From positions 1 through 10,226 of the IMG/VR virus record IMGVR_UViG_2690316311_000004: 10,226 nt of DNA; one strand, 5' to 3'. Of the stretch, positions 1 to 10,226 are shown in pieces. The DNA is from a virus. Lineage: Duplodnaviria > Heunggongvirae > Uroviricota > Caudoviricetes. Each line of letters begins with the position of its first letter. The first letter of the stretch is position 1. The position numbers and the translations under genes were made by a program. The notes under the pieces were generated by a model. That model had not been told where the DNA came from. It ran no database searches and worked only from the letters and a program-made list of their open reading frames with translations.

Positions 1-541
1 ATACGTCGTGCCCGTCTTCCTGTAACTGGTTCAGCAGATTCATCAGCAGTGAGTTCTCCGTCAGGCCGAGAACACCAGACGGCGAATGAATCAGGCTGCG
101 GTAGCCGGGCTTCAGTGGGGCGCTGTATTCTTTTTTGTCTTCCAGCTTGATCGCCTCCATAATGGCGGGCATGAAGCCTGACAAGACCTTCTCCACTTTT
201 GTTTCTTGTTGTCTTAAACGTTTCTCGCATTCAATGAAGTAGCGTCGTACCTGACGACCTTTTTCGTTACGCTCGACCATTGCTAGTTCTTTGGCTGTAT
301 CGAGGGTGAGGTGGTACTCTTTGCGGTTGTGGCCGCCTCTACCAGATGTTTGCTTTCCCAAATTGGAAAGCAAAATATAGTCTTGATTTTCAATGAATTC
401 GTATTCTGAAATGCGATTTGTAATCCATGCTGCAAACACCTTTTTAACACCTAAAAAAGCGTGCAGATCGCGGGCATTGCAAAGTAGGGCTGTTTCGTTA
501 GATATAGTGCCGTTGAATACGGGGATGAGTTGACTGGTCAT
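1..541 (-). CDS. Phage antirepressor, AntA/KilAC-type (N-terminal ~180 codons; 3' end runs off the window start)
   Basis: Minus-strand ORF with ATG at 541-539 preceded by AAGGAGG (plus 547-553) 5 nt upstream; no stop before position 1. Translation [58 protein letters not shown]...[42 protein letters not shown] fits the AntA-type antirepressor N-terminal domain as I recall it. Not in the ORF track because truncated. Confidence 0.8.
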
Positions 542-570
542 GATGACCTCCTTTGAAGTTTTAGTTAGCA

Positions 571-593
571 ATCACCAGTTAGTAGCTGGTGAT
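571..593. promoter_or_regulatory. Perfect 8-bp inverted repeat ATCACCAG-ttagtag-CTGGTGAT about 30 bp upstream of the antirepressor start
   Basis: Visible; lies in the antirepressor promoter/5' leader region on the minus strand. Binding factor unknown. Confidence 0.35.
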
Positions 594-705
594 CGGGTGT
601 CAACTAGAGCCTTCAAAGACGCTCCGGGCATATTCCCCTTTTGGGTATTGTATTACGCCTCTCCACCCGACCTTTGTACGGATGTGACTATGCCAAATTG
701 CAGGC

Positions 706-735
706 ATAAAAAAGCCGCAAAGCTATCGGGTGCGG
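706..735 (-). terminator. Possible weak terminator ending the leftward operon
   Basis: Minus-strand RNA CCGCA-(11-nt loop)-UGCGG followed by CUUUUUUAUG; short stem and long loop. Confidence 0.3.
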
Positions 736-865
736 GTGACCGCTTTGAAGTTCTAGTGCGGTCAGTATGCGATAGCTCTGGCGGCATTGTCAAATCATGC
801 GCCACTGAGTCCAGCAATCTCTGCAATACCAATAGCGAGATAATCGCGATTCGTCAGGCGTGATT

Positions 866-1114
866 TTATTGCATATGTCTTAGCTCCACTGAAGTTGTGA
901 TTTTATATGGGTTGCCTTTTACCTCAATAACACGATGAGGATCATTTTTTAGCTCTTCCGTAATCTTCCGTAATCTTCTAACAGCTGAACTTCGGTGTTT
1001 ATAACGGTAAGTTACAGTTTCTTTTCTCTGCAATACCTCATCATTGCGGTACTTAGTCAAAACCATGACGACTTCAAACCTGACGCCGTTGTGTGCAACC
1101 ATAATCTGCTTCAT
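866..1114 (-). CDS. Small basic hypothetical protein (82 aa), translationally coupled to the upstream methyltransferase
   Basis: ATG at 1114-1112 overlaps the methyltransferase TGA (ATGA overlap); GGGAG about 9 nt upstream. Product MKQIMVAHNGVRFEVVMVLTKYRNDEVLQRKETVTYRYKHRSSAVRRLRKITEELKNDPHRVIEVKGNPYKITTSVELRHMQ is K/R-rich with no family I recognise. Contains a 10-bp tandem repeat that sets the C-terminal frame. The ORF track extends it to 1234, which I consider unlikely. Confidence 0.45.
   Translation of the reverse strand: MKQIMVAHNGVRFEVVMVLTKYRNDEVLQRKETVTYRYKHRSSAVRRLRKITEELKNDPHRVIEVKGNPYKITTSVELRHMQ
955..978. repeat. Tandem repeat of the 10-mer CTTCCGTAAT (2.4 copies) inside the 866..1114 ORF
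   Basis: Directly visible: cttccgtaat at 955-964 and 965-974, then cttc at 975-978. The period is not a multiple of 3, so copy number determines the reading frame of the last ~30 codons. Confidence 0.9.
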
Positions 1115-1761
1115 GCTGCACGCTCCCGCCCCTGGTTGTCTGTTGGTGACAGCGGAGCATTGCTGAATGCATTTGTTAATCCGCCAATATCCAACGCGTA
1201 TCCAGGGTGTAGTTGCACTGCCGGGTCTTCGCACTGATTACCCCAAACATCGAAACCATGAGACGACTGGCGGGCGAACAGTTCAATGCGAGAAACATCG
1301 CCTAACAATTGCACAAGTTTTTCACGAACGATATCTGGTTTTCTTGAATGCTCAAGCCGCGGTGCGGTAAATGACTGAACGATCCCTGCATTAATGCGCG
1401 TAGGTAGTTTTCCCTTTACCGCAAACAGGCAATCTTCACTATTGGCGCGAGTCATGTGCCCCATACCCATAACCAGTTTATCTGGTTGTCGACTACCACA
1501 TTTTATCCACGTGAAGCCCTTCATGGTCATCAGACGGAATCCCCAGGCTTCAACAACTTTTAGTGCTTCGAGTGGTTGTGTTGGCACCCACCACATGGCC
1601 AACAGACAGTTTTCATCGGCCAAATCCCACACAGGAAGGCGGCAGATATCCAGCACACTCATAACCGGATATTTAAAACCGGCACCGCGATTACCATCTG
1701 CGGCTTTGTCCCGGTATACCCAGGGTGGATCTGCATAGATTAGTGTGTATTTCTTAGTCAT
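1111..1761 (-). CDS. MT-A70-family (beta-class) N6-adenine DNA methyltransferase
   Basis: 216-aa ORF with ATG at 1761-1759. N-terminal LIYADPPWVY (DPPW catalytic motif) and C-terminal RIELFARQSSHGFDVWGNQ are characteristic of the MT-A70 family as recalled. Stop overlaps the start of the downstream small ORF. Confidence 0.85.
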   Translation of the reverse strand: MTKKYTLIYADPPWVYRDKAADGNRGAGFKYPVMSVLDICRLPVWDLADENCLLAMWWVPTQPLEALKVVEAWGFRLMTMKGFTWIKCGSRQPDKLVMGMGHMTRANSEDCLFAVKGKLPTRINAGIVQSFTAPRLEHSRKPDIVREKLVQLLGDVSRIELFARQSSHGFDVWGNQCEDPAVQLHPGYALDIGGLTNAFSNAPLSPTDNQGRERAA

Positions 1762-2053
1762 AAACCACCCCGCAACATCCTATGCCGCTATAGTCGCCAC
1801 GGCGAAGGCCGTTACCTTTTGTGATACATTGGTCCCTGCGAACCGCGATCCTTGCACGCTCAACATCACCAGAAGCAACATCCATACACTGAAGCCAAAG
1901 GTGGGCGGCAATGCGGAACTGCCCTTTTTTCTCTCTTTCAATCGCGCGTTTTTCGATCTCTATCGCCGCAGGAGTAACGGCAACAACCTTTGAAGGGCTG
2001 CGCATTGAAACCTTGTTCATGTGATATTTTTCAAGTCGGCTTAACTTTCTCAC
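1754..2053 (-). CDS. Hypothetical protein; start uncertain (GTG 2053, or ATG at 2020 or 2005)
   Basis: ORF overlaps the methyltransferase start by 8 nt, suggesting co-translation. The GTG at 2053 has no good SD; the ATG at 2005 has AAGG 5 nt upstream. No recognisable domain. Confidence 0.4.
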   Translation of the reverse strand: MRKLSRLEKYHMNKVSMRSPSKVVAVTPAAIEIEKRAIEREKKGQFRIAAHLWLQCMDVASGDVERARIAVRRDQCITKGNGLRRGDYSGIGCCGVVYD

Positions 2054-2162
2054 TTAATCCAACCATCTCTGAAAATTAATGCCAGCAGATAAAGCCATGC
2101 AGAAACAGAGGCCAGGAATAAGTACCATCCTGACCATTTGCTCCAGTGCCTTAGCAGCACAC

Positions 2163-2411
2163 TCATGCCGCGTTGCTCACGGGACGATATACACGTTGCT
2201 GAACAGGAGGTTTTTTACCCTGGAACTCTGCCGGGCTTGCTGCCTGACGTTCATCAAGCCAACGCTCAACTTCATCACGGTTCCATGCGCAGCGTTTATC
2301 GGTGATATACCAGCGTTTAGGAAATTCCCCTGCGCGCTCCATACGGTCGATAGTGCTCCATGACAGTGGCACCACCGCCAGGAGTTCCTTCTTACCTAAT
2401 GCACCTTTCAT
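2163..2411 (-). CDS. AlpA-family phage transcriptional regulator / excisionase-like HTH protein
   Basis: 82-aa ORF with ATG at 2411-2409 and AGAGAGG SD 6 nt upstream. LLAVVPLSWSTIDRMERAGEFPKRWYITDKRCAWNRDEVERWLDERQA matches the AlpA/Xis-type winged-helix pattern (S-STIYR-IK-G-FP-...W...EV-.W) from memory. Confidence 0.75.
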   Translation of the reverse strand: MKGALGKKELLAVVPLSWSTIDRMERAGEFPKRWYITDKRCAWNRDEVERWLDERQAASPAEFQGKKPPVQQRVYRPVSNAA

Positions 2412-2433
2412 AAATACCTCTCTTGGTTGCAGT

Positions 2434-2452
2434 GCGGCGCGCGTGGCGCCGC
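2434..2452. other. Perfect 7-bp GC-only inverted repeat (GCGGCGC-gcgtg-GCGCCGC) between the annealing-protein and AlpA-like genes
   Basis: Visible in the sequence; no T-run follows on either strand, so it is not a canonical intrinsic terminator. Confidence 0.4.
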
Positions 2453-2460
2453 GGTGGTGG

Positions 2461-3342
2461 TTACATAGATGTTTCGTTTAATTCTTCCCGACGAACGCTG
2501 TAAACGTCGGTGGCTTTTGCCAGCAGTTCGTCATCATCTGAAAGTTTTTGTGCAATGTATTTGTAAGCCTTATCCAGTTCGGAGACAGTGCTGTAATTCA
2601 TCGCTGCGCTGGTAAAGGCCATCAGCATTTCTTCTGGATCACGGCTATCCGCTTTACGCGTTTGCTCATCAGGCTTTTTCGCTGGTTTAGCGTTGATCAG
2701 ACTGTTCATTCCCGCAGCAGTGGTCGTTTGCGGAGTAATGTCTCGCTCAACGCGCGGTGCCGTTTCCTGTAATTCGTCAGGGGTGTAAACACCGAGAAGT
2801 ACATCAGGAGCGTGCAGGCGAGCCCATCGTTTCGTGCAAAGATAGGCAAGCTGCTGGCGCGGATCCTGTTCCCACAATGGAGAGTTACGCACTCCGGCTT
2901 GCGCCATACTGATGGTAAGCTCACGGGGTTCTGCTTCTCCTTTAAGAACTGCTGACACAGTTACCGTCAGATTCGGTGATTTATCTGTTTTGCCGTTAAC
3001 ATTCGACCAGTCACCGCTCCAGCGATAATTCAGGCGTGTCGCTAGCAGGCTGGAAGAGGATACGACCGCGTTTACCAACTGTGCTTCGTAGCCTAACGTT
3101 CCGTTTACCACATGCGTTTTCTGCGCCACGGCGAAAGGATTCATTCCCCACTGTGCCGCCTGCATGGTCACCGCCAGACAATCGGCAGGTTTGCCTTCAA
3201 GATGTTTCGGTACAGTCGCTTTGCTTTGTGACATCAACTCCGCGAAACGCACCAGTTGATTCATGCCCTCCGGGCTGAAGATTGCCGCAGCAGTACCTAC
3301 AGTTGCGCCTGGTTGTGATGTGATTGCGATATCATTGCTCAT
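2461..3342 (-). CDS. Single-strand annealing recombinase, Bet (Red-beta)/RecT superfamily
   Basis: 293-aa ORF whose ATG overlaps the exonuclease stop (ATGA). Segments MQAAQWGMNPFAVAQKTHVVNGTLGYEAQL, QQLAYLCTKRWARLHAPDVLLGVY and ERDITP parallel lambda Bet (ANQYGLNPW..., KAMIQCARLAFGFAGIY, ERDITP) as I recall it. Sits directly after an exonuclease gene. Confidence 0.85.
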   Translation of the reverse strand: MSNDIAITSQPGATVGTAAAIFSPEGMNQLVRFAELMSQSKATVPKHLEGKPADCLAVTMQAAQWGMNPFAVAQKTHVVNGTLGYEAQLVNAVVSSSSLLATRLNYRWSGDWSNVNGKTDKSPNLTVTVSAVLKGEAEPRELTISMAQAGVRNSPLWEQDPRQQLAYLCTKRWARLHAPDVLLGVYTPDELQETAPRVERDITPQTTTAAGMNSLINAKPAKKPDEQTRKADSRDPEEMLMAFTSAAMNYSTVSELDKAYKYIAQKLSDDDELLAKATDVYSVRREELNETSM

Positions 3343-4160
3343 ACGTACATATCCTGTTTACGTGCCCAGTCAGGGCGTTTAATAATTTCCACTCCGCCCC
3401 ACTCATCGTTGATGCGGCATTCGTGATAGGTATTCAGATCCCGGCGGAACAGAGCGTGCCCGGCATCGACATCCGGCGCATCCAGCTCGAACACGCGTAC
3501 CGGATACCGACCACAATCAATGCTTTCGCTCACGGCAAGAAAGAAAAAACCATGTGGCTGACCAGTAACCCTCATTGCGCCTTCGCGGTACATTGCGTCC
3601 TGCACGTGGTAGCGGAACTCCTCGATGTGGCGTGCAAAACGGTCCATATCTGCAACCTTTTTCACGTCGACGATCACGTTGTGCTCGTTCAGCCATTTGT
3701 CTGGACGAATTCGGCACAACTCACCCGTATCTTCATCGTTCCAGTACATTGATGCTTCGCAGTAACCATGTGCTTCCAACATCCAGCGTGCCGCCGGGTG
3801 AGCCATTGCGCTATCACGCATCAGCTCCAGTTTTCGCCACTGCTCTGCATCAAGTACCGAAATCCCCATATCCGCTACATCACGAATAAATGCCTCTTCG
3901 TCAGCTTTACCTTGTTTTGTCCGACGATCGAATTTCGGTGAAACGATGAAGCGTTTGTCAAACTCTCCAGGTTCCAGAAGCAGACAGTGCAGAGCAGTAC
4001 CCATGTCCAGTGCAGACTTCTTCTCTTCGTCTTCCGGAGCAGCCTTCACCCATTTCAGAAGGGCAGGGTTCTTAGCCACCATATCTAGCTGCGACTTACT
4101 CACGCCGTCACCGGCGTGGTAGTCCTCGTTGCTGATATCGAAATAAATTCCCGGATTCAT
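3339..4160 (-). CDS. Exonuclease VIII-like (RecE C-terminal type) PD-(D/E)XK nuclease, recombination partner of the annealing protein
   Basis: 273-aa ORF. N-terminal GIYFDISNEDYH, a PDKW...VIVDVKKV (D...D-x-K) block and HVQDAMYREG (Q-x3-Y) fit the PD-(D/E)XK fold of prophage exodeoxyribonuclease VIII-like proteins (recalled). Coupled to ORFs on both sides by ATGA overlaps. Confidence 0.8.
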   Translation of the reverse strand: MNPGIYFDISNEDYHAGDGVSKSQLDMVAKNPALLKWVKAAPEDEEKKSALDMGTALHCLLLEPGEFDKRFIVSPKFDRRTKQGKADEEAFIRDVADMGISVLDAEQWRKLELMRDSAMAHPAARWMLEAHGYCEASMYWNDEDTGELCRIRPDKWLNEHNVIVDVKKVADMDRFARHIEEFRYHVQDAMYREGAMRVTGQPHGFFFLAVSESIDCGRYPVRVFELDAPDVDAGHALFRRDLNTYHECRINDEWGGVEIIKRPDWARKQDMYV

Positions 4161-4456
4161 GCCGCGTCCCTCTGCCCATCAAGCTGATCCGCCAGCTCCC
4201 AGCGGGCGATAATTGCCATTGCCTCTCGCCGATAGGCATCCATCAGTTCTTCGAACTCAGGGCTGTCTTTAGCAGCCTCCAGCACTTCCTGACGAACGCC
4301 TTTGCCTGTTACAACGTCAAAAGTTGAGGCCAGTTGATGAAGCCGGATACTCTCAATCAGTTCGACTTGTCGGTCATATAGCTGTTCTGACAGGCGGTAG
4401 TCCTTGTCGAATGCCAGCATGATTTTTTGAAGATTTTTCTGCTGATTAACGTTCAT
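4157..4456 (-). CDS. Hypothetical protein occupying the gam-like position upstream of the exonuclease
   Basis: ATG at 4456-4454 (MNVNQQKNLQKIM...) with GGGAGGG SD 8 nt upstream. The ORF-track start at 4471 lies inside that SD, so I prefer 4456. No confident family assignment; not obviously lambda Gam. Confidence 0.6.
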   Translation of the reverse strand: MNVNQQKNLQKIMLAFDKDYRLSEQLYDRQVELIESIRLHQLASTFDVVTGKGVRQEVLEAAKDSPEFEELMDAYRREAMAIIARWELADQLDGQRDAA

Positions 4457-4458
4457 TA

Positions 4459-4611
4459 TCAGCCCTCCCATATCTCGTTATCGTTGGCCACATCGCGAGC
4501 TTCTTTGCTGACGAAAGCCCACTTAATACCTTCCTGTAAGGTGCGGAACTTCCAGCTCATGAATCCGCATGCAGTAACGCAGTACCAACCGTTGATGATT
4601 TTCCACTGCAT
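4459..4611 (-). CDS. Small ORF (50 aa) at the kil-like first position of the leftward operon
   Basis: ATG at 4611-4609 with GAGG SD 9 nt upstream. Product MQWKIINGWYCVTACGFMSWKFRTLQEGIKWAFVSKEARDVANDNEIWEG. Its stop lies in the SD of the next gene. Absent from the ORF track, presumably under a length cut-off. Confidence 0.35.
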   Translation of the reverse strand: MQWKIINGWYCVTACGFMSWKFRTLQEGIKWAFVSKEARDVANDNEIWEG

Positions 4612-4667
4612 AACTTGTTACCTCGGCCTGTTATCGTTGAGGTAATAATTATGCGTATCTGGTTTGA

Positions 4668-4673
4668 TGTCAA
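4668..4673 (-). promoter_or_regulatory. Candidate -35 hexamer (TTGACA on the minus strand) of a pL-like leftward early promoter
   Basis: Perfect TTGACA on the minus strand about 55 nt upstream of the 4611 start. The -10 is ambiguous (CATAAT/TAATTA at about 4645-4652). An operator palindrome lies just upstream at 4693-4707. Confidence 0.35.
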
Positions 4674-4692
4674 TAGATATGAGTTAAAAAAA

Positions 4693-4707
4693 TTACCCAT
4701 TAGGTAA
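4693..4707. promoter_or_regulatory. Operator-like palindrome TTACCC-att-AGGTAA (copy 1 of 6)
   Basis: Visible palindrome, extendable to ATTACCCATTAGGTAAT (4692-4708). Sits between the repressor-gene terminator and the leftward promoter. Confidence 0.6.
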
Positions 4708-4717
4708 TCGAATAGGC

Positions 4718-4744
4718 AATAAAAAAGCCGCCTTCTGGCGGCTT
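4718..4744 (-). terminator. Intrinsic terminator of the repressor gene (minus strand)
   Basis: Minus-strand RNA reads AAGCCGCC-AGAA-GGCGGC followed by TTTTTTATT: a 6-7 bp GC stem with 4-nt loop and U-run, 20 nt downstream of the repressor stop. Confidence 0.75.
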
Positions 4745-4764
4745 ACTTACTGAAAAATATGATT

Positions 4765-5349
4765 TTATTGTTTGTTTTTTTCGTTCTGGTTGATGACAAA
4801 TTCAATGTAACTTTCGATCTTTGCTTTCTCGGTTTCGGGTAACAATGCGTAGCGCGAGCGATCATAGTTGATGGTCGCAGGGTCGTGCGGGTGAATCAGT
4901 AATTCATAGCCGTGACGCCCGAATGCGGATGCAACATTCTCCAGGGTGGAAATGGAAACGCTGACCTCATTGTTTAACAGGCGGCTGATTGTCACTTGGG
5001 CGACGCCGGATGCGCGGTGTAGTTTTCCCTGCGTTGAAAGGTCGCGGCTTTCGCTCATCCAGCGTTCCAGGTTGTGAGCCGCCAGCTGACCTATATCGCT
5101 CGGGCCGACAGGCTGAAAACCCTCCTGAGAAAGCGAGCGATCAATATCAAGCCAGTTACGGGGTTTATTGGCGGCAGCTTCAATTTTTCGTGCAACCTGG
5201 TCGCCGATAACCTTCTTGCCAAGAGCCCAGCGGTTTACCAGATTTGCCTGAGTTCCAAGTTTTTCTGCCATCCGCGTCTGAACACCATTGAATTCACGGT
5301 CGATCAAGTCGTTGAGATTTTGCCTGCGGACGTCCTGGATACTTTTCAT
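4765..5349 (-). CDS. Prophage repressor candidate with two tandem HTH (XRE/CI-type) domains and no recognisable S24 peptidase domain
   Basis: 194-aa ORF divergent from the Cro-like gene. First HTH around QTRMAEKLGTQANLVNRWALGKKVIGDQVARKI; second around LHRASGVAQVTISRLLNNEVSVSISTLENVASAFG. No Ala-Gly/Ser-Lys autocleavage module seen. Poor SD, consistent with a near-leaderless maintenance transcript. Confidence 0.8.
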   Translation of the reverse strand: MKSIQDVRRQNLNDLIDREFNGVQTRMAEKLGTQANLVNRWALGKKVIGDQVARKIEAAANKPRNWLDIDRSLSQEGFQPVGPSDIGQLAAHNLERWMSESRDLSTQGKLHRASGVAQVTISRLLNNEVSVSISTLENVASAFGRHGYELLIHPHDPATINYDRSRYALLPETEKAKIESYIEFVINQNEKNKQ

Positions 5350-5372
5350 TTTCTGGAAAATCGCCTCATATA

Positions 5373-5391
5373 TGAATCAGTAGATGATTCA
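5373..5391. promoter_or_regulatory. Unique perfect palindrome TGAATCA-gtaga-TGATTCA about 25 bp upstream of the repressor start
   Basis: 7-bp arms with 5-bp spacer, visible in the sequence. A different motif from the recurrent TTACC/GGTAA palindrome and not repeated elsewhere in the window. Confidence 0.4.
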
Positions 5392-5404
5392 ATTTAAAGC
5401 AATA

Positions 5405-5419
5405 TTACCCAACAGGTAA
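5405..5419. promoter_or_regulatory. Operator-like palindrome TTACCC-aac-AGGTAA (copy 2 of 6), OR-like region
   Basis: Visible palindrome in the divergent repressor/cro intergenic region. Confidence 0.6.
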
Positions 5420-5449
5420 ATGCACCTCATAGGTAACTATCCTTGATTT

Positions 5450-5478
5450 TTGTTACCTTATGGGTGAATATTTATTAT
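5450..5478 (+). promoter_or_regulatory. Candidate pR-like promoter for the Cro-like gene (-35 TTGTTA 5450-5455, 17-bp spacer, -10 TATTAT 5473-5478)
   Basis: Hexamers read by eye; an alternative -35 is TTGATT at 5443-5448. Operator copy 3 lies between -35 and -10. Confidence 0.4.
5453..5467. promoter_or_regulatory. Operator-like palindrome TTACCT-tat-GGGTGA (copy 3 of 6, one mismatch)
   Basis: Visible; overlaps the proposed pR spacer. Confidence 0.5.
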
Positions 5479-5503
5479 CTGAAATAAATATCAGGCAATA
5501 GCT

Positions 5504-5734
5504 ATGAGCGATAACGGACATTTCGATTTCAAAAAGCACTGGCTTGCACTTACTCCGGATGAGCGTGAAGCCTTCGCACAGGAAGCCGGAACAACGAGTC
5601 ACTATATCCAGACTCACTTAACAGGTAAGCGCAAAATGCCAGGTAAGGTATTGATGAATGGGCTTTTTAAAGCCTGTAAAACAAGACAATGGCTGCGCTC
5701 AAAAGCAGAACTGGCATACTTCTTCTACTCATGA
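5504..5734 (+). CDS. Cro-like / YdaS-like small HTH regulator
   Basis: 76-aa ORF divergent from the repressor. HTH-like segment EAFAQEAGTTSHYIQTHLTGKRKMPGKVL. Followed by an intrinsic terminator. Weak SD (AGG 8 nt upstream). Confidence 0.65.
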   Translation: MSDNGHFDFKKHWLALTPDEREAFAQEAGTTSHYIQTHLTGKRKMPGKVLMNGLFKACKTRQWLRSKAELAYFFYS

Positions 5735-5756
5735 TATCCAGCTACAACCCTCTGTA

Positions 5757-5782
5757 GACCGCCACCCGGCGGTCTTTTCATA
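5757..5782 (+). terminator. tR1-like intrinsic terminator after the Cro-like gene
   Basis: GACCGCC-accc-GGCGGTC followed by TTTTCATATCTATT: 7-bp GC-rich stem, 4-nt loop, T-rich tail. Confidence 0.65.
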
Positions 5783-5789
5783 TCTATTC

Positions 5790-5804
5790 GTACCTCAAAG
5801 GTAA
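5790..5804. promoter_or_regulatory. Operator-like palindrome GTACCT-caa-AGGTAA (copy 4 of 6, one mismatch)
   Basis: Visible; immediately downstream of the tR1-like terminator. Confidence 0.45.
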
Positions 5805-5884
5805 TAAAAAACCAAATCTGGTTGATCTTTTTTTTGTGTCAGCACAAAATGACCGTAATCCCAATACTAATAACAGGGCTTACC

Positions 5885-6085
5885 ATGGAAATCATTACAC
5901 GTATTGATGCCGCAAAGCGCGGACTTAAACGCTACTACACCGGAAAACCATGTAAGCATGGACATGACAGTGAACGCTGGGTTTACAACGGACACTGTGT
6001 TGAGTGCACCATGGAATCAAACCGTCGCATCAGGGCAGAGATTAAGCAGATCATGATTAATTCCTCCCCACAACACTCAAGCTGA
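5885..6085 (+). CDS. Small Cys/His-cluster (zinc-ribbon-like) hypothetical protein in the cII-like position
   Basis: Product MEIITRIDAAKRGLKRYYTGKPCKHGHDSERWVYNGHCVECTMESNRRIRAEIKQIMINSSPQHSS has C-x-H-G-H ... H-C-x-E-C spacing suggestive of metal binding. Start ambiguous: ATG 5885 (weak SD), ATG 5849, or the ORF-track TTG at 5822. Confidence 0.5.
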   Translation: MEIITRIDAAKRGLKRYYTGKPCKHGHDSERWVYNGHCVECTMESNRRIRAEIKQIMINSSPQHSS

Positions 6086-6100
6086 TAGCGGAGATTAATC

Positions 6101-6934
6101 ATGAGCAGACATGCAACAGATTGGGCCTGGGAGACAGATCCAGGTAGCTCATCATTAAAGCTCATACTGCTCTCGATGGCTGACAGAGCCGATGAATATA
6201 ACCTCTGCTACCCCAGCATAGAACGCCTCGTTAAAGACACTTGCCTGAATAAAAAAACCGTGCAGGCCGGGCTTATATCGCTCATGAAAATGGGGCTTAT
6301 TTCAGATACCGGAGAGAGAAAGGGAGCGACGAAAAGAGTGCGGGTTTTCTCTCTTAATATAACCAAAAACGGGAACATTAAAGGCAACCGGGAAGGGGGT
6401 AATGAACCCGAAAACGGTAATGTTACCGAAAACGGTAATGTTACCGAAAACGGGAATATACCCAAAAACGGGATGTTGAATGATCCCAAAAACGGGATGT
6501 TGAATGATCCCAAAAACGGGATCCAGAACCAGTCATATAACCAGTCATTTAACCAAGAGAGGGAGAGCAGGACAAAAAGCGGGGATTCTGTGCCTCATGA
6601 CCCCGGCGCAAACAACGCCGTGATGAATAACTTTGTTCCTCCTGGTGGGCCAGGGCAATTAGGCAAATTTGTCATGCATGAACAATGGCAACCATCAGAT
6701 GACTTTCTTCGGAAAAGCTCATTGCAGGGGATCTACCTGGACAGTCTGCCAACGGCACAGGAACTTGCAGAGTTCAGAATTTACTGGATGGCTGAGGGTA
6801 AGGCATACCATCAGGCGCAGTGGGAGCAGAAGCTGGCAAGGCGGCTGCAGATTAGCAGACAGAAGCAATCAACATTACCTGATAACAACGTTCCGCACTG
6901 GAACAGCCCTGAAGCATGGGAGGATTTCTTGTGA
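6101..6934 (+). CDS. Replication initiator (O-like): N-terminal winged-helix replication HTH domain, iteron-encoded linker, C-terminal DnaT-like domain
   Basis: 277-aa ORF with GGAG SD 8 nt upstream. N-terminus WAWETD...SSLKLILLSMADRADEYNLCYPSIERLVKDTCLNKKTVQAGLISLMKMGLIS is replication-initiator HTH-like. C-terminus GKFVMHEQWQPSDDFLRKSSL...ELAEFRIYWMAEGKAYHQAQWEQKLARRLQISR closely parallels E. coli DnaT (GKFAMYPDWQPDADFIRL...[29 protein letters not shown], recalled). Stop overlaps the P start (GTGA). Confidence 0.85.
   Translation: MSRHATDWAWETDPGSSSLKLILLSMADRADEYNLCYPSIERLVKDTCLNKKTVQAGLISLMKMGLISDTGERKGATKRVRVFSLNITKNGNIKGNREGGNEPENGNVTENGNVTENGNIPKNGMLNDPKNGMLNDPKNGIQNQSYNQSFNQERESRTKSGDSVPHDPGANNAVMNNFVPPGGPGQLGKFVMHEQWQPSDDFLRKSSLQGIYLDSLPTAQELAEFRIYWMAEGKAYHQAQWEQKLARRLQISRQKQSTLPDNNVPHWNSPEAWEDFL
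6361..6552. repeat. Origin-like iteron array inside the O-like gene
   Basis: Seven copies of a CC(C/G)AAAACGG(G) core at 6363-6373, 6407-6417, 6426-6435, 6444-6454, 6461-6472, 6485-6496 and 6509-6520, with 18-bp then 24-bp periodicity. Several are palindromic (ATCCCaaaaacGGGAT, GTTACCgaaaacGGTAA), resembling lambda ori iterons (TCCCTCAAAACGAGGGA, recalled). Followed by a tandem 12-mer CCAGTCAT(A/T)TAA x2 at 6529-6552. Confidence 0.7.
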
Positions 6935-7716
6935 ACAACGTTTTTACCGCAATACAAAACCGTGACGGAGAAGCTCTTTCTCGCATGTCAGGTTATGAGC
7001 ATCAGTACGTCAACAATGACAACGTAGTGAACATGTCAGCAGAGAGGCTTGTTGATGCCCTTTTCAAACAGTTGAAACAACTGTTTCCGGCGGCAGTGGT
7101 AACCAACCTGAAGACGCCAGAGCAGGAAGTTGCTGCAAAACAGCAGTGGATTGCTGCGTTTGCCGAAGGGGGGATCCGAACCCGTGAACAGGTTTCTGCT
7201 GGTATGCGCCACGCCCGCGCCAGTGATTCTCCGTTCTGGCCGTCGCCAGGGCAATTCATCAAGTGGTGCAAAGACAGCAAGATGGTTCTTGGCGTCACCA
7301 TTGACGATGTGATGACGGAGTTTCACCGGTACAGCAAGGAAAAAAGTTTATATCCTGGTGGTCCCGAAAGATTCCCGTGGCGGCATCCGGTTATGTACTG
7401 GGTCGTATGTGATACCCGCCGTGCAATGTATCAGCGCCAGCTTAGCGAGATAGAGGTTGAGAAACACGCGCGCAGGCTGCTCGATGATTGGGCGAAAAAG
7501 GTGGCTTCCGGACAGCAGATACCCGATCCGGTGATCAGCATACAGGCAAAGCCAGAACCCATGAGTACGCCTCCGGACACAGGGAGAGACGTTTACCATC
7601 CACCAGGGCGAAGTTTCGGGTGCATGCCTAACGCCGCCACCCTTGGGGGAATAACACCGGCGCAGTGGCTGATGGAGGAATACAGGCGAGGAAAGGCGGA
7701 AGGATTTATCAAGTAA
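6931..7716 (+). CDS. Replication protein P homologue (DnaB helicase loader), lambda P family
   Basis: From GTG 6931 (GGAGGA SD 6 nt upstream) the product VNNVFTAIQNRDGEA... aligns with lambda P MKNIAAQMVNFDREQ...; QQWIAAFAEGGIRTREQVSAGMRHARASDSPFWPSPGQFIKWCKD matches lambda P RQWVLAFRENGITTMEQVNAGMRVARRQNRPFLPSPGQFVAWCRE (recalled). The ORF-track ATG at 6916 is the alternative start. Confidence 0.9.
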   Translation: MNNVFTAIQNRDGEALSRMSGYEHQYVNNDNVVNMSAERLVDALFKQLKQLFPAAVVTNLKTPEQEVAAKQQWIAAFAEGGIRTREQVSAGMRHARASDSPFWPSPGQFIKWCKDSKMVLGVTIDDVMTEFHRYSKEKSLYPGGPERFPWRHPVMYWVVCDTRRAMYQRQLSEIEVEKHARRLLDDWAKKVASGQQIPDPVISIQAKPEPMSTPPDTGRDVYHPPGRSFGCMPNAATLGGITPAQWLMEEYRRGKAEGFIK

Positions 7717-7721
7717 TACCA

Positions 7722-7741
7722 GCGCGATAGCGCATTTTTTT
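7722..7741 (+). terminator. Weak tR2-like terminator after P
   Basis: GCGC-gata-GCGC followed by ATTTTTTT, 6 nt after the P stop. The stem is only 4 bp, so confidence is low. Confidence 0.35.
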
Positions 7742-7753
7742 ACGTTTCGATAA

Positions 7754-7768
7754 TTACCTGTTAGGTAA
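7754..7768. promoter_or_regulatory. Operator-like palindrome TTACCT-gtt-AGGTAA (copy 5 of 6; perfect, extends to ATTACCTGTTAGGTAAT)
   Basis: Visible; upstream of the candidate promoter -35 at 7788. Confidence 0.6.
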
Positions 7769-7787
7769 TAAAATATTCTAAAATCTA

Positions 7788-7816
7788 TTGATTTCGTGTC
7801 TTATGTGGTTTTTAAT
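7788..7816 (+). promoter_or_regulatory. Candidate sigma70 promoter for the DUF1064/Ea22 block (-35 TTGATT 7788-7793, 17-bp spacer, -10 TTTAAT 7811-7816)
   Basis: Hexamers read by eye; flanked by operator copies 5 (upstream) and 6 (overlapping the -10 and start region). Confidence 0.45.
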
Positions 7817-7830
7817 TACCTCAGGGGTAA
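7816..7830. promoter_or_regulatory. Operator-like palindrome TTACCT-cag-GGGTAA (copy 6 of 6)
   Basis: Visible; ends 3 nt before the ATG at 7834 and overlaps the proposed -10. Confidence 0.55.
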
Positions 7831-7833
7831 ATC

Positions 7834-8178
7834 ATGAGAAAACAGATACAGGCTCTTGGTCGACTCAAAACAGGCCAGATGAACAAAACAGAATCTGCGT
7901 ATTGCCAGCACCTTGAGCTGCGTAAACGTGCAGGAGAAATCGTCTGGTATCGATTTGAGGGTATCAAGCTTCGGTTAGCTGACAACACGTTCTATACGCC
8001 CGATTTTGCTGTGATGCTCGCCACCGGCGAGATGGAACTGCACGAAGTGAAAGGTTTCTGGACCGACGACGCCAGGGTGAAAACCAAAGTCGCCGCAGAT
8101 CAGTATCCGTTCCGAATCATCGGGGTAACGGTTAAACCAAAGAAAGCAGGTGGTGGCTGGAATATCGAAGAGTTCTGA
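7834..8178 (+). CDS. DUF1064-like phage protein (putative nuclease-fold protein)
   Basis: 114-aa ORF with AGGGG SD 6 nt upstream. YTPDF...ELHEVKGFWT resembles the D...E-x-K-type core I associate with the phage DUF1064 family; assignment from memory. Confidence 0.65.
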   Translation: MRKQIQALGRLKTGQMNKTESAYCQHLELRKRAGEIVWYRFEGIKLRLADNTFYTPDFAVMLATGEMELHEVKGFWTDDARVKTKVAADQYPFRIIGVTVKPKKAGGGWNIEEF

Positions 8179-8239
8179 ATCGACGATCTTTTTAGTTATC
8201 AATGTAATCAATAAGTTATGTGGATAAGCGAGGGTAAAG

Positions 8240-8872
8240 ATGGAAAGTAATATCAAAGGGTTAGTTGCCGCCGGGCATGAGATGGCTTCGGAACTGAAAG
8301 CAGAATGTGGTGCCGTTGATATGCGCAGTGTGGCAAAGCTGATCAGCGATTTGGCAACGCAACTGGAAGTGCAACTGGTGCGTGCTAATGCGCTGGCCGA
8401 AGACCAGCAGAAAGCGATTGAGTCAATTAAGCAGGCTGATTCGGCTGTTAAGTTGGCACACGAGAAGTTTTCGGCGCTGGCGGCGGAGAATGCGGGGCTG
8501 AAACATGCAATGGCTGTAACTCTTGAGCATGTGTCGGTCACGGATGCAGGTCAGGCCGGAGTTGCTGCAATGATTATCAACGATGCCCTGCACCACAGCG
8601 AAACTCCAGCCACCGATGCTTTTCTGGCTGAAATTCGTGCGGCGGCTCGCAACGAGGGGATTAACTATACCGCAAGCCGTCTTGCTGCTGCTTTCAACCA
8701 CGGATTTATCAATAAGTCTTTACGTGAAGTTTTCGACGTTACGCGCATGATTCTGTCAGCGAAAGAAGAGTTGGCTAATGAACCGCACCCGATTGATGGC
8801 CTGTCCGGTGAATATGCGGAGAAATCCCTTGAAGAATGGGCGGAACAGATTCGCAAAGGAGCTGACAAGTGA
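8240..8872 (+). CDS. Ea22-like (ead/Ea22-like family, tentative) phage protein, paralogue A
   Basis: 210-aa ORF with a coiled-coil-like middle (ALAAENAGLK) and a C-terminal domain (ETPATDAFLAEIRAAARNEGINYTASRLAAAFNHGFI...RMILSAKEE) shared with the ORF at 9288..10073. The family name is a tentative recollection. Confidence 0.6.
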   Translation: MESNIKGLVAAGHEMASELKAECGAVDMRSVAKLISDLATQLEVQLVRANALAEDQQKAIESIKQADSAVKLAHEKFSALAAENAGLKHAMAVTLEHVSVTDAGQAGVAAMIINDALHHSETPATDAFLAEIRAAARNEGINYTASRLAAAFNHGFINKSLREVFDVTRMILSAKEELANEPHPIDGLSGEYAEKSLEEWAEQIRKGADK

Positions 8873-9279
8873 AGAGGATGATTTTTGTGGCGGCATTGCT
8901 GACCATTACCCAACAGGCGCAGGCTTCAGCAGTTATTGTGGCATCTACCGCCGCGACCACGGCTGCTGTAGCTGCTGCGAACTCTGCGAATATCGCAAAC
9001 CAACAGTCACAGCGTGCTGCCAATGCATCAGCCAGTGTTCACCCAATCGCCATTAAGGCCAGCAAGAAAAATATAGGTTTCATAACATGCGGCAAACGTT
9101 CTGACGAGGCTGTAGGTTCACTTGGATGTACGGTATATGGGGATAGTGAGAGTAGAGAAATTCCATGGAAAACGTGGCCCGGATATGTTCTCGGATCGAA
9201 GCTCACTGCCAGCTATGAAGTAAACGCCGTATCGTTTGATCACTATAACGGCGTGGCAACGGTCTATTTTGCATATTGA
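8869..9279 (+). CDS. Small secreted/periplasmic protein with Sec-type signal peptide; function unknown
   Basis: GTG at 8869 overlaps the upstream stop (GTGA), with AAGGAG 7 nt upstream. N-terminus MKRMIFVAALLTITQQAQA has n-region KR, an 11-residue hydrophobic core and an AQA-S cleavage-like site, followed by an Ala/Thr/Ser-rich linker and a ~70-aa C-terminal domain with two Cys. Confidence 0.6.
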   Translation: MKRMIFVAALLTITQQAQASAVIVASTAATTAAVAAANSANIANQQSQRAANASASVHPIAIKASKKNIGFITCGKRSDEAVGSLGCTVYGDSESREIPWKTWPGYVLGSKLTASYEVNAVSFDHYNGVATVYFAY

Positions 9280-9287
9280 GGCTCCGC

Positions 9288-10073
9288 ATGAAATTCTCCA
9301 AATTTTCTGAGTTGGTGAATCGTATTTTGTCCAACAACCACAGCCATCGTCGCGATATGGATGTAACGATCGTTGTTCATTCGCCTGGCAGCATTGGTTC
9401 AACACCCTCAGTTGAGGTTCAGTCAATTCACGCTGGTTTTGATTGGGATTCCGGGAAAGTGCTGATTTTCCCAGCACAGCCACTGACTACGCTAACACCA
9501 GAACAGATTACTGATATTACTGATAGTGTGCGCAAAGGTCAGTCCTGGCACGCATATCAGGAATATAAGAAGCATAAAGAGCAGTTGGAAAAATTATCGA
9601 TTGAACTTGATACCGCAAAACAGCGCATTGCAGAGCTGGAGGGTAATCGCGCGGCGCTGGCTGCGGAGAATGCGAGACTGAAGGCGATATGTGAGGATCG
9701 CCGCACGTTCATTATGAATGGCGTGCAGCTTGGTTTTATCAAAGTGCCAACAGTGGAAATAGATCCAGCTCTTGAAACAATTCGTATCGCCCTATCACCA
9801 CAAAAAACCACTCCTGCGACCGACACTTTCCTGGATGAAGTGAAGACTGAAGCACGCAAGGAGGGCGCTTACTTTGTGGCGAACAGAATGCTGGCTGCTT
9901 GGGAAGCTGGTTTTATTGATGATACTGCGAAGAACGCCGCGGATATTGCCCGGATGATTCTTACCTCTACTGAGTTTATGGCTAATGCGCGGGAAGGCGA
10001 TTTTGACCGCTCATTCTCTGATGGCGTTCTCGAAGATATCGCTGACCAGCTTCGAAAAGGAGGCAAACAGTGA
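9288..10073 (+). CDS. Ea22-like (tentative) phage protein, paralogue B
   Basis: ATG at 9288 with GAGG 6 nt upstream (the ORF track uses TTG at 9276). Coiled-coil IAELEGNRAALAAENARLK and C-terminal TTPATDTFLDEVKTEARKEGAYFVANRMLAAWEAGFI...RMILTSTEF parallel paralogue A. Confidence 0.6.
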   Translation: MKFSKFSELVNRILSNNHSHRRDMDVTIVVHSPGSIGSTPSVEVQSIHAGFDWDSGKVLIFPAQPLTTLTPEQITDITDSVRKGQSWHAYQEYKKHKEQLEKLSIELDTAKQRIAELEGNRAALAAENARLKAICEDRRTFIMNGVQLGFIKVPTVEIDPALETIRIALSPQKTTPATDTFLDEVKTEARKEGAYFVANRMLAAWEAGFIDDTAKNAADIARMILTSTEFMANAREGDFDRSFSDGVLEDIADQLRKGGKQ

Positions 10074-10226
10074 GCAAGATTGACTATCAGGCACTGCGCG
10101 AGGCGGCAGAAGCAATAAAAGTCGTGGCAACGCCGCAAAAATTGCTTGCGTTTCGTATGAAAGTCACACCGCAGGTTGTGCTGGTGCTGCTGGATGAACT
10201 AGAAGCTAAAAACAAACGCATTACAG
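10070..10226 (+). CDS. Partial ORF (5' end only), hypothetical phage protein
   Basis: GTG at 10070 overlaps the upstream stop (GTGA), with AGGAGG 6 nt upstream. Reads MSKIDYQALREAAEAIKVVATPQKLLAFRMKVTPQVVLVLLDELEAKNKRIT... with no stop before the window end. Confidence 0.45.
   Translation, partial: MSKIDYQALREAAEAIKVVATPQKLLAFRMKVTPQVVLVLLDELEAKNKRIT

Follow-up and report, generated by a model that had tools for sequence, protein, structure and literature searches.

Recurrent palindromes in a phiV10/ε15-type prophage of Escherichia coli as putative operators of the immunity repressor Rep

The locus

The stretch of DNA considered here (the window) comprises 10,226 nucleotides, positions 1 to 10,226 of the IMG/VR record IMGVR_UViG_2690316311_000004, and it holds the gene of a phage immunity repressor, Rep, next to a palindrome, TTACC-N5-GGTAA, that recurs in several intergenic regions as its putative operator. 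The window belongs to a temperate podovirus prophage of the phiV10/ε15 type (Uetakevirus), integrated at guaA. Over 3.8 kb it is 97-98% identical in nucleotide sequence to phiV10, PAS61 and phiv142-3, members of a genus whose type phage is Salmonella ε15, and it is 100% identical to prophages of several E. coli chromosomes. A match to it is present in 564 of 5426 complete E. coli genomes (~10%). In strain 2015C-4944 the prophage lies at the 3' end of guaA, the integration site reported for phage ZX5.

The genes are listed in Table 1. On the minus strand lie rep and, beyond it, genes for recombination and regulation, down to an antirepressor gene (ant) that is cut by the window edge. On the plus strand follow a cro-like gene, replication genes and a gene for a putative Holliday-junction resolvase, which is the first gene of the unit placed behind the operator pair at 7753-7831.

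Recurrence and placement of the palindrome

A sequence-only reading of this DNA had listed six copies of the palindrome. All six are present where it placed them, four of them perfect (4693-4707, 5405-5419, 7754-7768 and 7816-7830) and two with a single mismatch (5453-5467 and 5790-5804); two are part of perfect palindromes of 17 bp, ATTACCCATTAGGTAAT (4692-4708) and ATTACCTGTTAGGTAAT (7753-7769), again as had been claimed. When TTACCYNNNRGGTAA was searched throughout the window with at most two mismatches, nine matches were found against 0.63 expected, and the highest count among 200 dinucleotide-preserving shuffles was three, so that the recurrence is well above chance. TTACC-N5-GGTAA also ranks first in the window when perfect 5+5 palindromes are enumerated without bias, whatever their spacer. 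The consensus reads aTTACC-N5-GGTAAt, with W in the central position; measured against the 17-mer ATTACC-N5-GGTAAT, the window holds two perfect sites and six with one to four mismatches.

Two extra copies are degenerate, at 4631-4645 (TTATCGTTGAGGTAA, one core mismatch) and at 5422-5436 (GCACCTCATAGGTAA, two mismatches). They are considered genuine because relatives have good sites at equal offsets, 62 bp from 4693 and 17 bp from 5405, respectively. A further match with two mismatches, at 5614-5628 within the cro-like coding sequence, is probably due to chance and was dropped as an operator, the DNA being conserved there for coding reasons.

Placement was evaluated with the RefSeq gene calls of an identical E. 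coli chromosome, which leave 1142 nt, or 11.2% of the window, outside genes. Each of the seven sites that deviate from the core in one position or none falls within this fraction (P ~2e-7), in keeping with the earlier claim that the copies are restricted to intergenic DNA, and promoter-like or terminator-like elements are present beside each cluster, as had likewise been observed. The number of loci, by contrast, had been underestimated. Instead of three, which had been opposed to the classic two, the window has four clusters, at the leftward early promoter (PL), between rep and the cro-like gene (OR), upstream of the gene at 5885 and upstream of the gene at 7834; the prophage has at least nine, and the scatter is not new, since it is annotated in ε15.

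Individual sites are well anchored in the relatives. In phiV10, ZX5 and Tyrion a perfect site stands in the place of the PL-proximal operator, at a distance of 62 bp from the distal one; in the window this operator reaches over the final 2 nt of the -10 hexamer and over the predicted start of transcription. The -35 hexamer of PL and its spacing are kept in six aligned genomes. For the degenerate OR site b, a perfect site at the 17-bp offset is found in ε15, SPN1S, Klebsiella phages and Citrobacter prophages. The distance of 48 bp between OR sites a and c is kept in phiV10, ZX5, Tyrion and several prophages, and the single operator upstream of the 5885 gene keeps a 337-bp offset from site c in phiV10, ZX5 and Tyrion. 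This last site is of the distal type; the proximal position of the replication unit retains a half-site only.

Table 1. Genes, operators, promoters and terminators of the window (positions are those of the window)
Feature	Position	Strand	Basis or remark
ant (partial), N-terminal 180 codons of a 218-residue antirepressor, cut by the window edge	1-541	-	homology
Methyltransferase	1111-1761	-	
PerC-like activator	1754-2053	-	
AlpA-like regulator	2163-2411	-	
recT	2461-3342	-	
Exonuclease	3339-4160	-	
Two small genes	4157-4456 and 4459-4611	-	
PL-proximal operator GTTATCGTTGAGGTAAT, core 4631-4645, 1 core mismatch	4630-4646	.	synteny
Leftward early promoter (PL analogue), TTGACA-17-AATTAT, 10/12 consensus matches	4645-4673	-	promoter scan
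PL-distal operator, perfect 17-bp palindrome ATTACCCATTAGGTAAT, centre ~-62	4692-4708	.	
Intrinsic terminator downstream of rep, between rep and PL	4725-4744	-	also annotated in phiV10
Immunity repressor Rep, 194 residues	4765-5349	-	Pfam helix-turn-helix only; 5D50_A match
OR site a ATTACCCAACAGGTAAA, closest to rep	5404-5420	.	syntenic in all relatives
OR site b, degenerate, core GCACCTCATAGGTAA, 2 mismatches, 17 bp from site a	5421-5437	.	
Rightward early promoter (PR analogue), TTGTTA-17-TATTAT, drives the cro-like gene	5450-5478	+	
OR site c, core TTACCTTATGGGTGA, 1 mismatch; covers the PR -35 hexamer and spacer	5452-5468	.	
Cro-like helix-turn-helix regulator, 76 residues	5504-5734	+	PHROG 35 'transcriptional repressor', E=6e-13
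Intrinsic terminator after the cro-like gene	5756-5775	+	also annotated in phiV10
Single operator CGTACCTCAAAGGTAAT, 1 core mismatch, centre ~-60 from the candidate promoter	5789-5805	.	
Candidate promoter TTGATC-17-CAAAAT for the 5885 gene and the replication genes	5822-5850	+	by eye; not called by the promoter scan
Small gene	5885-6085	+	
DnaT-like initiator	6101-6934	+	
P-like	6931-7716	+	
Resolvase-promoter distal operator, perfect 17-bp palindrome ATTACCTGTTAGGTAAT	7753-7769	.	
Resolvase-gene promoter TTGATT-17-TTTAAT, laid out like PL	7788-7816	+	by eye
Resolvase-promoter proximal operator ATTACCTCAGGGGTAAA; covers the -10 hexamer and start site; 62 bp from the distal site; 3 nt before ATG 7834	7815-7831	.	
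DUF1064, putative Holliday-junction resolvase	7834-8178	+	Pfam DUF1064; PHROG 190 'Holliday junction resolvase', E=7e-43

Conservation of the sites and of their partner

Scans of the whole genomes of phiV10, ε15, ZX5, Tyrion, SPN1S and two Klebsiella phages returned 9-18 sites each, at matching intergenic positions. On the early side, the shared layout begins with a 62-bp pair at the leftward promoter; the interval from rep to cro then has two or three sites, another site follows after ~337 bp, and a second 62-bp pair stands before the resolvase gene. The conserved offsets are 62, ~712-724, 17/30-48, ~337 and 62 bp. On the late side, a pair 18 bp apart precedes terS, one site precedes the portal operon, others lie in the divergent region between ant and the tail-fibre gene, and one stands before the lysis cassette. 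The complete prophage to which the window belongs has ~16 sites in at least nine intergenic regions, including those upstream of terminase, portal, tail-fibre and lysis genes.

Association with the repressor was followed in 18 genomes or loci that code for a full-length Rep homologue of 43-100% identity, from at least nine host genera (Escherichia, Salmonella, Enterobacter, Klebsiella, Citrobacter, Serratia, Erwinia, Superficieibacter and Scandinavium). The motif is present in all 18, with 2-12 perfect cores per 10 kb. It still stands beside Rep variants with the helices NLVSRW, NLINRW and NLISRW, and it was not found in five loci with remote N-terminal similarity to Rep only and a different helix. 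In Paraburkholderia, Hydrogenovibrio and Thiomicrospira, whose proteins are distant homologues of the N-terminal domain, the motif is lacking and no other recurrent palindrome was found, a weak negative. The sequence-only reading had called for a check that motif and repressor type vary together. Strict co-occurrence was established; a change of specificity was sought across the family and none was found. A natural swap of specificity in the Klebsiella phages, whose DNA matches only in the P/DUF1064 segment, was considered and abandoned: the same Rep family and the same motif are present there. A scan of IMG/VR with a Rep alignment gave 80 loci, all 99-100% identical and uninformative on co-variation.

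The operator half-site appears frozen across Rep proteins down to 43% identity and across at least nine genera, and this may be due to the scatter of the operators over at least nine transcription units. In that case, the evolution of immunity specificity in this group of phages would have to proceed by way of the pairing of the Rep C-terminus with Ant and not through operator specificity.

Three side observations came from the same scans. An operator-like site lies upstream of int in every scanned phage, always with the same single mismatch, TTACCTTAAAGGTAT(A), for example at 26870-26884 in phiV10 and at 14147-14161 in the longer sequence of the window's prophage; Rep may bind it weakly and so control int, or else it is conserved for the function of attP. 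The operators before terS (27488 and 27506 in the longer prophage sequence, where terS is annotated at 27442-28116) lie within the coding sequence as annotated, at its 5' end. The annotated start comes just past the operator pair in ε15, ZX5 and Tyrion, and comparison of these start sites indicates that the terS start codon in phiV10 (41-715) and in RefSeq is probably placed ~80 nt too far upstream. Finally, a second conserved motif, (C)ATATGTGGTT, is found 40-50 bp downstream of a Rep operator before the portal operon, the tail-fibre gene and the lysis cassette (phiV10 3309, 20922 and 24740; ε15 2989, 24752 and 35954; Tyrion 4026 and 26456). The window copy, at 7801-7810, lies within the spacer of the 7788-7816 promoter, and the version at the lysis cassette is palindromic, AACCATATATGGTT. 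A -10-like hexamer follows this motif after 7-10 nt, and the motif may act as an element of late promoters or of activation; among the products of the window is a PerC-like activator (Table 1).

Operator pairs around two promoters

PL and the resolvase promoter, both of the σ70 type, share a common layout in the six-genome alignment. A distal operator is followed by 18 nt, TTGAnn, 17 nt and a -10 hexamer, the last two bases of which are the first two of the proximal 17-mer. The proximal operator spans about -8 to +9, and the centre of the distal operator lies at about -62. Exactly two operator pairs 61-63 bp apart occur per genome in 16 of the 18 genomes with a full-length Rep. At the resolvase promoter the alignment shows a conserved ctaTTGA at -35, at fixed distance, and the 62-bp pair is kept there despite a change of the downstream gene. 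This layout, with an invariant 62 bp from centre to centre, points to a clamp, in which a single Rep tetramer would hold the promoter in a very small loop.

At the resolvase gene a mosaic joint falls exactly at the start codon, the upstream promoter-operator module being conserved up to the ATG. Behind the module lies a DUF1064 gene in phiV10, SPN1S, Kp4865-1 and the window, and a RuvC-type resolvase in ε15 (35987-36451) and Tyrion (37345-37809). On sequence grounds, the resolvase genes at this joint are swapped functional analogues. Separately, in a Serratia prophage whose Rep has 54% identity and the helix NLISRW, TTACC-N5-GGTAA is kept, the 62-bp pairs are absent and spacings of 18 and 75 bp are found.

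Rep and its antirepressors

Rep is matched in Pfam by helix-turn-helix (HTH) families only, with a weak YdaS-type match at residues 21-61 and HTH_3 at 106-147; an S24 peptidase domain was not found in it by Pfam. Over its full length (residues 1-190 aligned) it matches the repressor of phage SPC32H, 5D50_A (E=4e-42, 43% identity), and it is 100% identical to the Rep of phiV10 and of ZX5. The Rep of SPN1S, a phage with the same operators, matches the crystallised SPC32H protein end to end (E=1e-130).

Much is already described about SPC32H. One report (PMC9986798) assigns DNA binding to the N-terminal domain of its Rep, dimerisation to the middle domain, and tetramerisation and Ant binding to the C-terminal domain; residues 92-198 form a tetramer in the crystal (PDB 5D4Z). 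A second report (PMC9638917) states that the tetramer binds palindromic sites, the dimer only weakly, and that a tetrameric Ant disassembles Rep. In published work on SPC32H, Rep remains uncleaved and is released when Ant binds its C-terminal part, and synthesis of Ant is blocked by the host LexA until DNA damage. In the case of ZX5, overexpression of the repressor removed over 99.9% of the transcripts for endolysin and holin (PMC9782041).

The window's ant is annotated as 'phage antirepressor Ant' in NZ_CP027390.1 and matches the PHROG family anti-repressor Ant (E=4e-67), its C-terminal residues 137-213 matching the SPC32H Ant chain 5D50_E (E=4.6e-14). The prophage has a second antirepressor, of the BRO-N type, near its tail-fibre gene. 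A perfect LexA box, TACTGTATGTTTATACAGTA, was found beyond the window, in the divergent region that separates the tail-fibre gene from the BRO-N ant operon (5466-5481 of the sequence that covers this region). The copy in the window, which sits beside int and has neither LexA box nor Rep operator there, appears to be under different control from the BRO-N gene. Its leader contains a palindrome of 8+7+8 at 571-593, ATCACCAGTTAGTAGCTGGTGAT, 30-52 nt upstream of the start codon (541, minus strand), and a strong σ70-like promoter, TTGACA-18-CATACT, lies at 764-793, ~220 nt upstream of that codon.

What binds the palindromes

Taken together, these data make it very probable that the palindromes are operators of Rep. 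The proposal that they form the operator set of a prophage immunity system is well supported, on three counts: the 17-mer is that of the annotated repressor sites of ε15 (seven 'protein_bind, repressor, lysogeny' features in AY150271.2, all ATTACC-N5-GGTAAT), the adjacent Rep is a homologue of SPC32H Rep, and the motif accompanies the Rep family. To be sure, several points weigh against this interpretation. The repressor-site features of ε15 may be computational annotations, and sequence alone does not separate Rep from the equally conserved Cro-like protein as the binder. What the family displays is co-occurrence with the motif, not true co-variation. The window copy of ant lacks a recognisable LexA box, none being found in the window with a 20-mer at up to three mismatches or with CTGT-N8-ACAG. 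A 62-bp loop is very tight. At the resolvase gene, the -10 hexamer of the 7788-7816 promoter (TTTAAT) is non-canonical, with a T in position 2, and the promoter scan rejects it, calling instead a promoter at 7747-7774 that overlaps the distal operator. This latter candidate is not favoured: it has no equivalent at PL, and the conserved layout is that of a bracketed TTGAnn-17-(-10).

That the Cro-like protein could be the main, or the sole, binder is the alternative with the most to recommend it, and we still regard it as improbable. In lambdoid switches Cro and CI share operators, the protein matches a PHROG family of transcriptional repressors, and it is 76-100% identical across relatives, with an invariant HTH-like stretch, AGTTSHYIQTHLTG, that parallels the invariance of the operators. 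Sites placed before terminase, portal, tail-fibre and lysis units, however, fit a repressor that maintains lysogeny and not an early lytic regulator; the ε15 record labels the sites as repressor sites, the ZX5 repressor, identical to Rep, silenced lysis genes when overexpressed alone, and SPC32H Rep is reported to bind palindromic DNA as a tetramer. Some sites are likely shared by Rep and the Cro-like protein, which is compatible with Rep as the principal binder.

If Rep binds, it could in principle do so as a monomer, with its N-terminal HTH on one half-site and its second HTH on the other, as the sequence-only reading had put forward. Two HTH-type regions are recognised by Pfam, and the phiV10 record also notes two HTH motifs. 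Exact dyads, however, call for two identical heads, and the helix-3 sequences of the two regions are unrelated (QANLVNRW and VAQVTISRLL). Moreover, the half-sites are invariant, and the N-terminal helix, N-L-[VI]-[NS]-R-W, is near-invariant over homologues of 43-100% identity that share them, while the second HTH-like helix varies (VAQVTISRLLNN in the window, IGPATVNRIMKA in ε15). The published SPC32H work places DNA binding in the N-terminal domain and oligomerisation, with dimerisation assigned to the second HTH-like region, in residues 92-198, and has the tetramer as the binding form and the dimer as a weak binder. The idea of a monomer spanning the site is thereby left with very little probability. 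Less credible still, and practically negligible, is the accidental enrichment in the prophage of a site for a host transcription factor, for which no support was found. In a host sample of 175 kb (E. coli K-12 and flanking host chromosome) there was one perfect core (0.057 per 10 kb) and five cores with at most one mismatch, which is near chance. Perfect cores are ~40-fold rarer in this sample than in the phages, where 8-11 occur per ~40 kb, and the motif travels with the phage across nine host genera. On this sample the host-site explanation was rejected, and the motif is not common in host DNA, the case that the sequence-only reading had named as one that would tell against its view.

A possible mode of repression by Rep

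With Rep as the binder, a mode of action can be proposed. Dyad sites with half-sites one helical turn apart point to two identical N-terminal HTH domains per site, each of which would read one TTACC. At PL and at the resolvase promoter, the proximal operator would block RNA polymerase, and the distal operator, 62 bp upstream, that is about six helical turns away and on the same face, would be bound by the remaining two DNA-binding domains of the same tetramer, with the promoter clamped in a small loop. The three OR sites, which lie between rep and the cro-like gene, would shut PR; sites a and b abut and probably serve in autoregulation of rep. Sites before the replication, terminase, portal, tail-fibre and lysis units would allow a single repressor to silence each of them directly, with no antitermination cascade, and terminators after the rep, cro-like and P-like genes would split the early region into directly repressed units. 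The Cro-like protein probably uses a subset of the Rep sites.

An observation in the replication unit touches on the operators. An iteron-like array at 6363-6520, inside the DnaT-like gene, has seven copies of CC[GA]AAAACGG in tandem units of 18 bp and 24 bp; by analogy, these are probably origin iterons within the initiator gene, as in λ O. Two of the units contain GGTAATGTTACC (6416-6427 and 6434-6445), that is, operator half-sites facing outward, which yields TTACC-N6-GGTAA at 6423-6438.

Significance

The value of these results lies mainly in annotation. This type of prophage is present in ~10% of complete E. coli genomes, including O157/O26-type strains, and neither the phiV10 reference record (97% identical to the window) nor the RefSeq prophage annotations carry operator features. 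Transfer of the ε15 operator model provides a map of repressor-controlled promoters, with ~16 sites per prophage, of use in engineering phiV10-based reporter phages and in predicting cross-immunity. It also yields sequence constraints on the mechanism of tetrameric Rep proteins of the SPC32H type: strict dyad symmetry, 62-bp pairs and abutting 17-bp sites. A full-text literature search for the motif letters returned no relevant match. The invariant bracketing pairs at 62 bp and the freezing of the half-site across the family are perhaps both undescribed, a claim that we make tentatively and would rather doubt than defend.

Comparison with known systems

Because Rep has a described homologue and its sites are those annotated in ε15, we deal here with an ordinary system. 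It is the known Rep-Ant switch of the ε15/SPC32H type and no new kind of system. With ε15 the consensus is identical, the 62-bp pairs are shared, and sites likewise lie left of rep and upstream of the resolvase, terminase, portal-operon and tailspike genes, although the ε15 repressor is only 43% identical to the window Rep. Missing from the ε15 record, but found by the scan, are the three OR sites and the proximal site at the resolvase gene. With SPC32H (PDB 5D50 and 5D4Z) the prophage shares a full-length Rep homologue, an Ant homologue and the lack of an autocleavage domain. A LexA box lies beside one ant operon of the prophage, and none was detected at the ant copy in the window. A further difference is in Ant itself, of 86 residues in SPC32H, where the window's prophage has longer fusions (218 residues, and the BRO-N type).

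How Rep represses in structural terms 'has not been extensively characterized', according to PMC9986798, which also likens SPC32H Rep to Rco of plasmid pLS20 (TetDloop), with an N-terminal DNA-binding domain, C-terminal tetramerisation and an antirepressor partner in common. The paired operators described here fit a looping mode of that kind, which we put forward for Rep as a proposal.

The resemblance to the CI/Cro switch of λ is in the divergent repressor and cro-like genes with three operators between them, in a second cluster that controls a leftward recombination operon, in dyad operators of 17 bp for HTH dimers and in higher-order oligomerisation of the repressor. The window's prophage differs in having no S24 autocleavage domain and in its probable induction by an antirepressor, and no cascade of the N or Q type is evident in it. 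Its operators occupy at least nine loci, late genes included, where λ has two (OL and OR), and its pairs bracket a promoter at 62 bp, whereas adjacent sites in λ are 23-24 bp apart.

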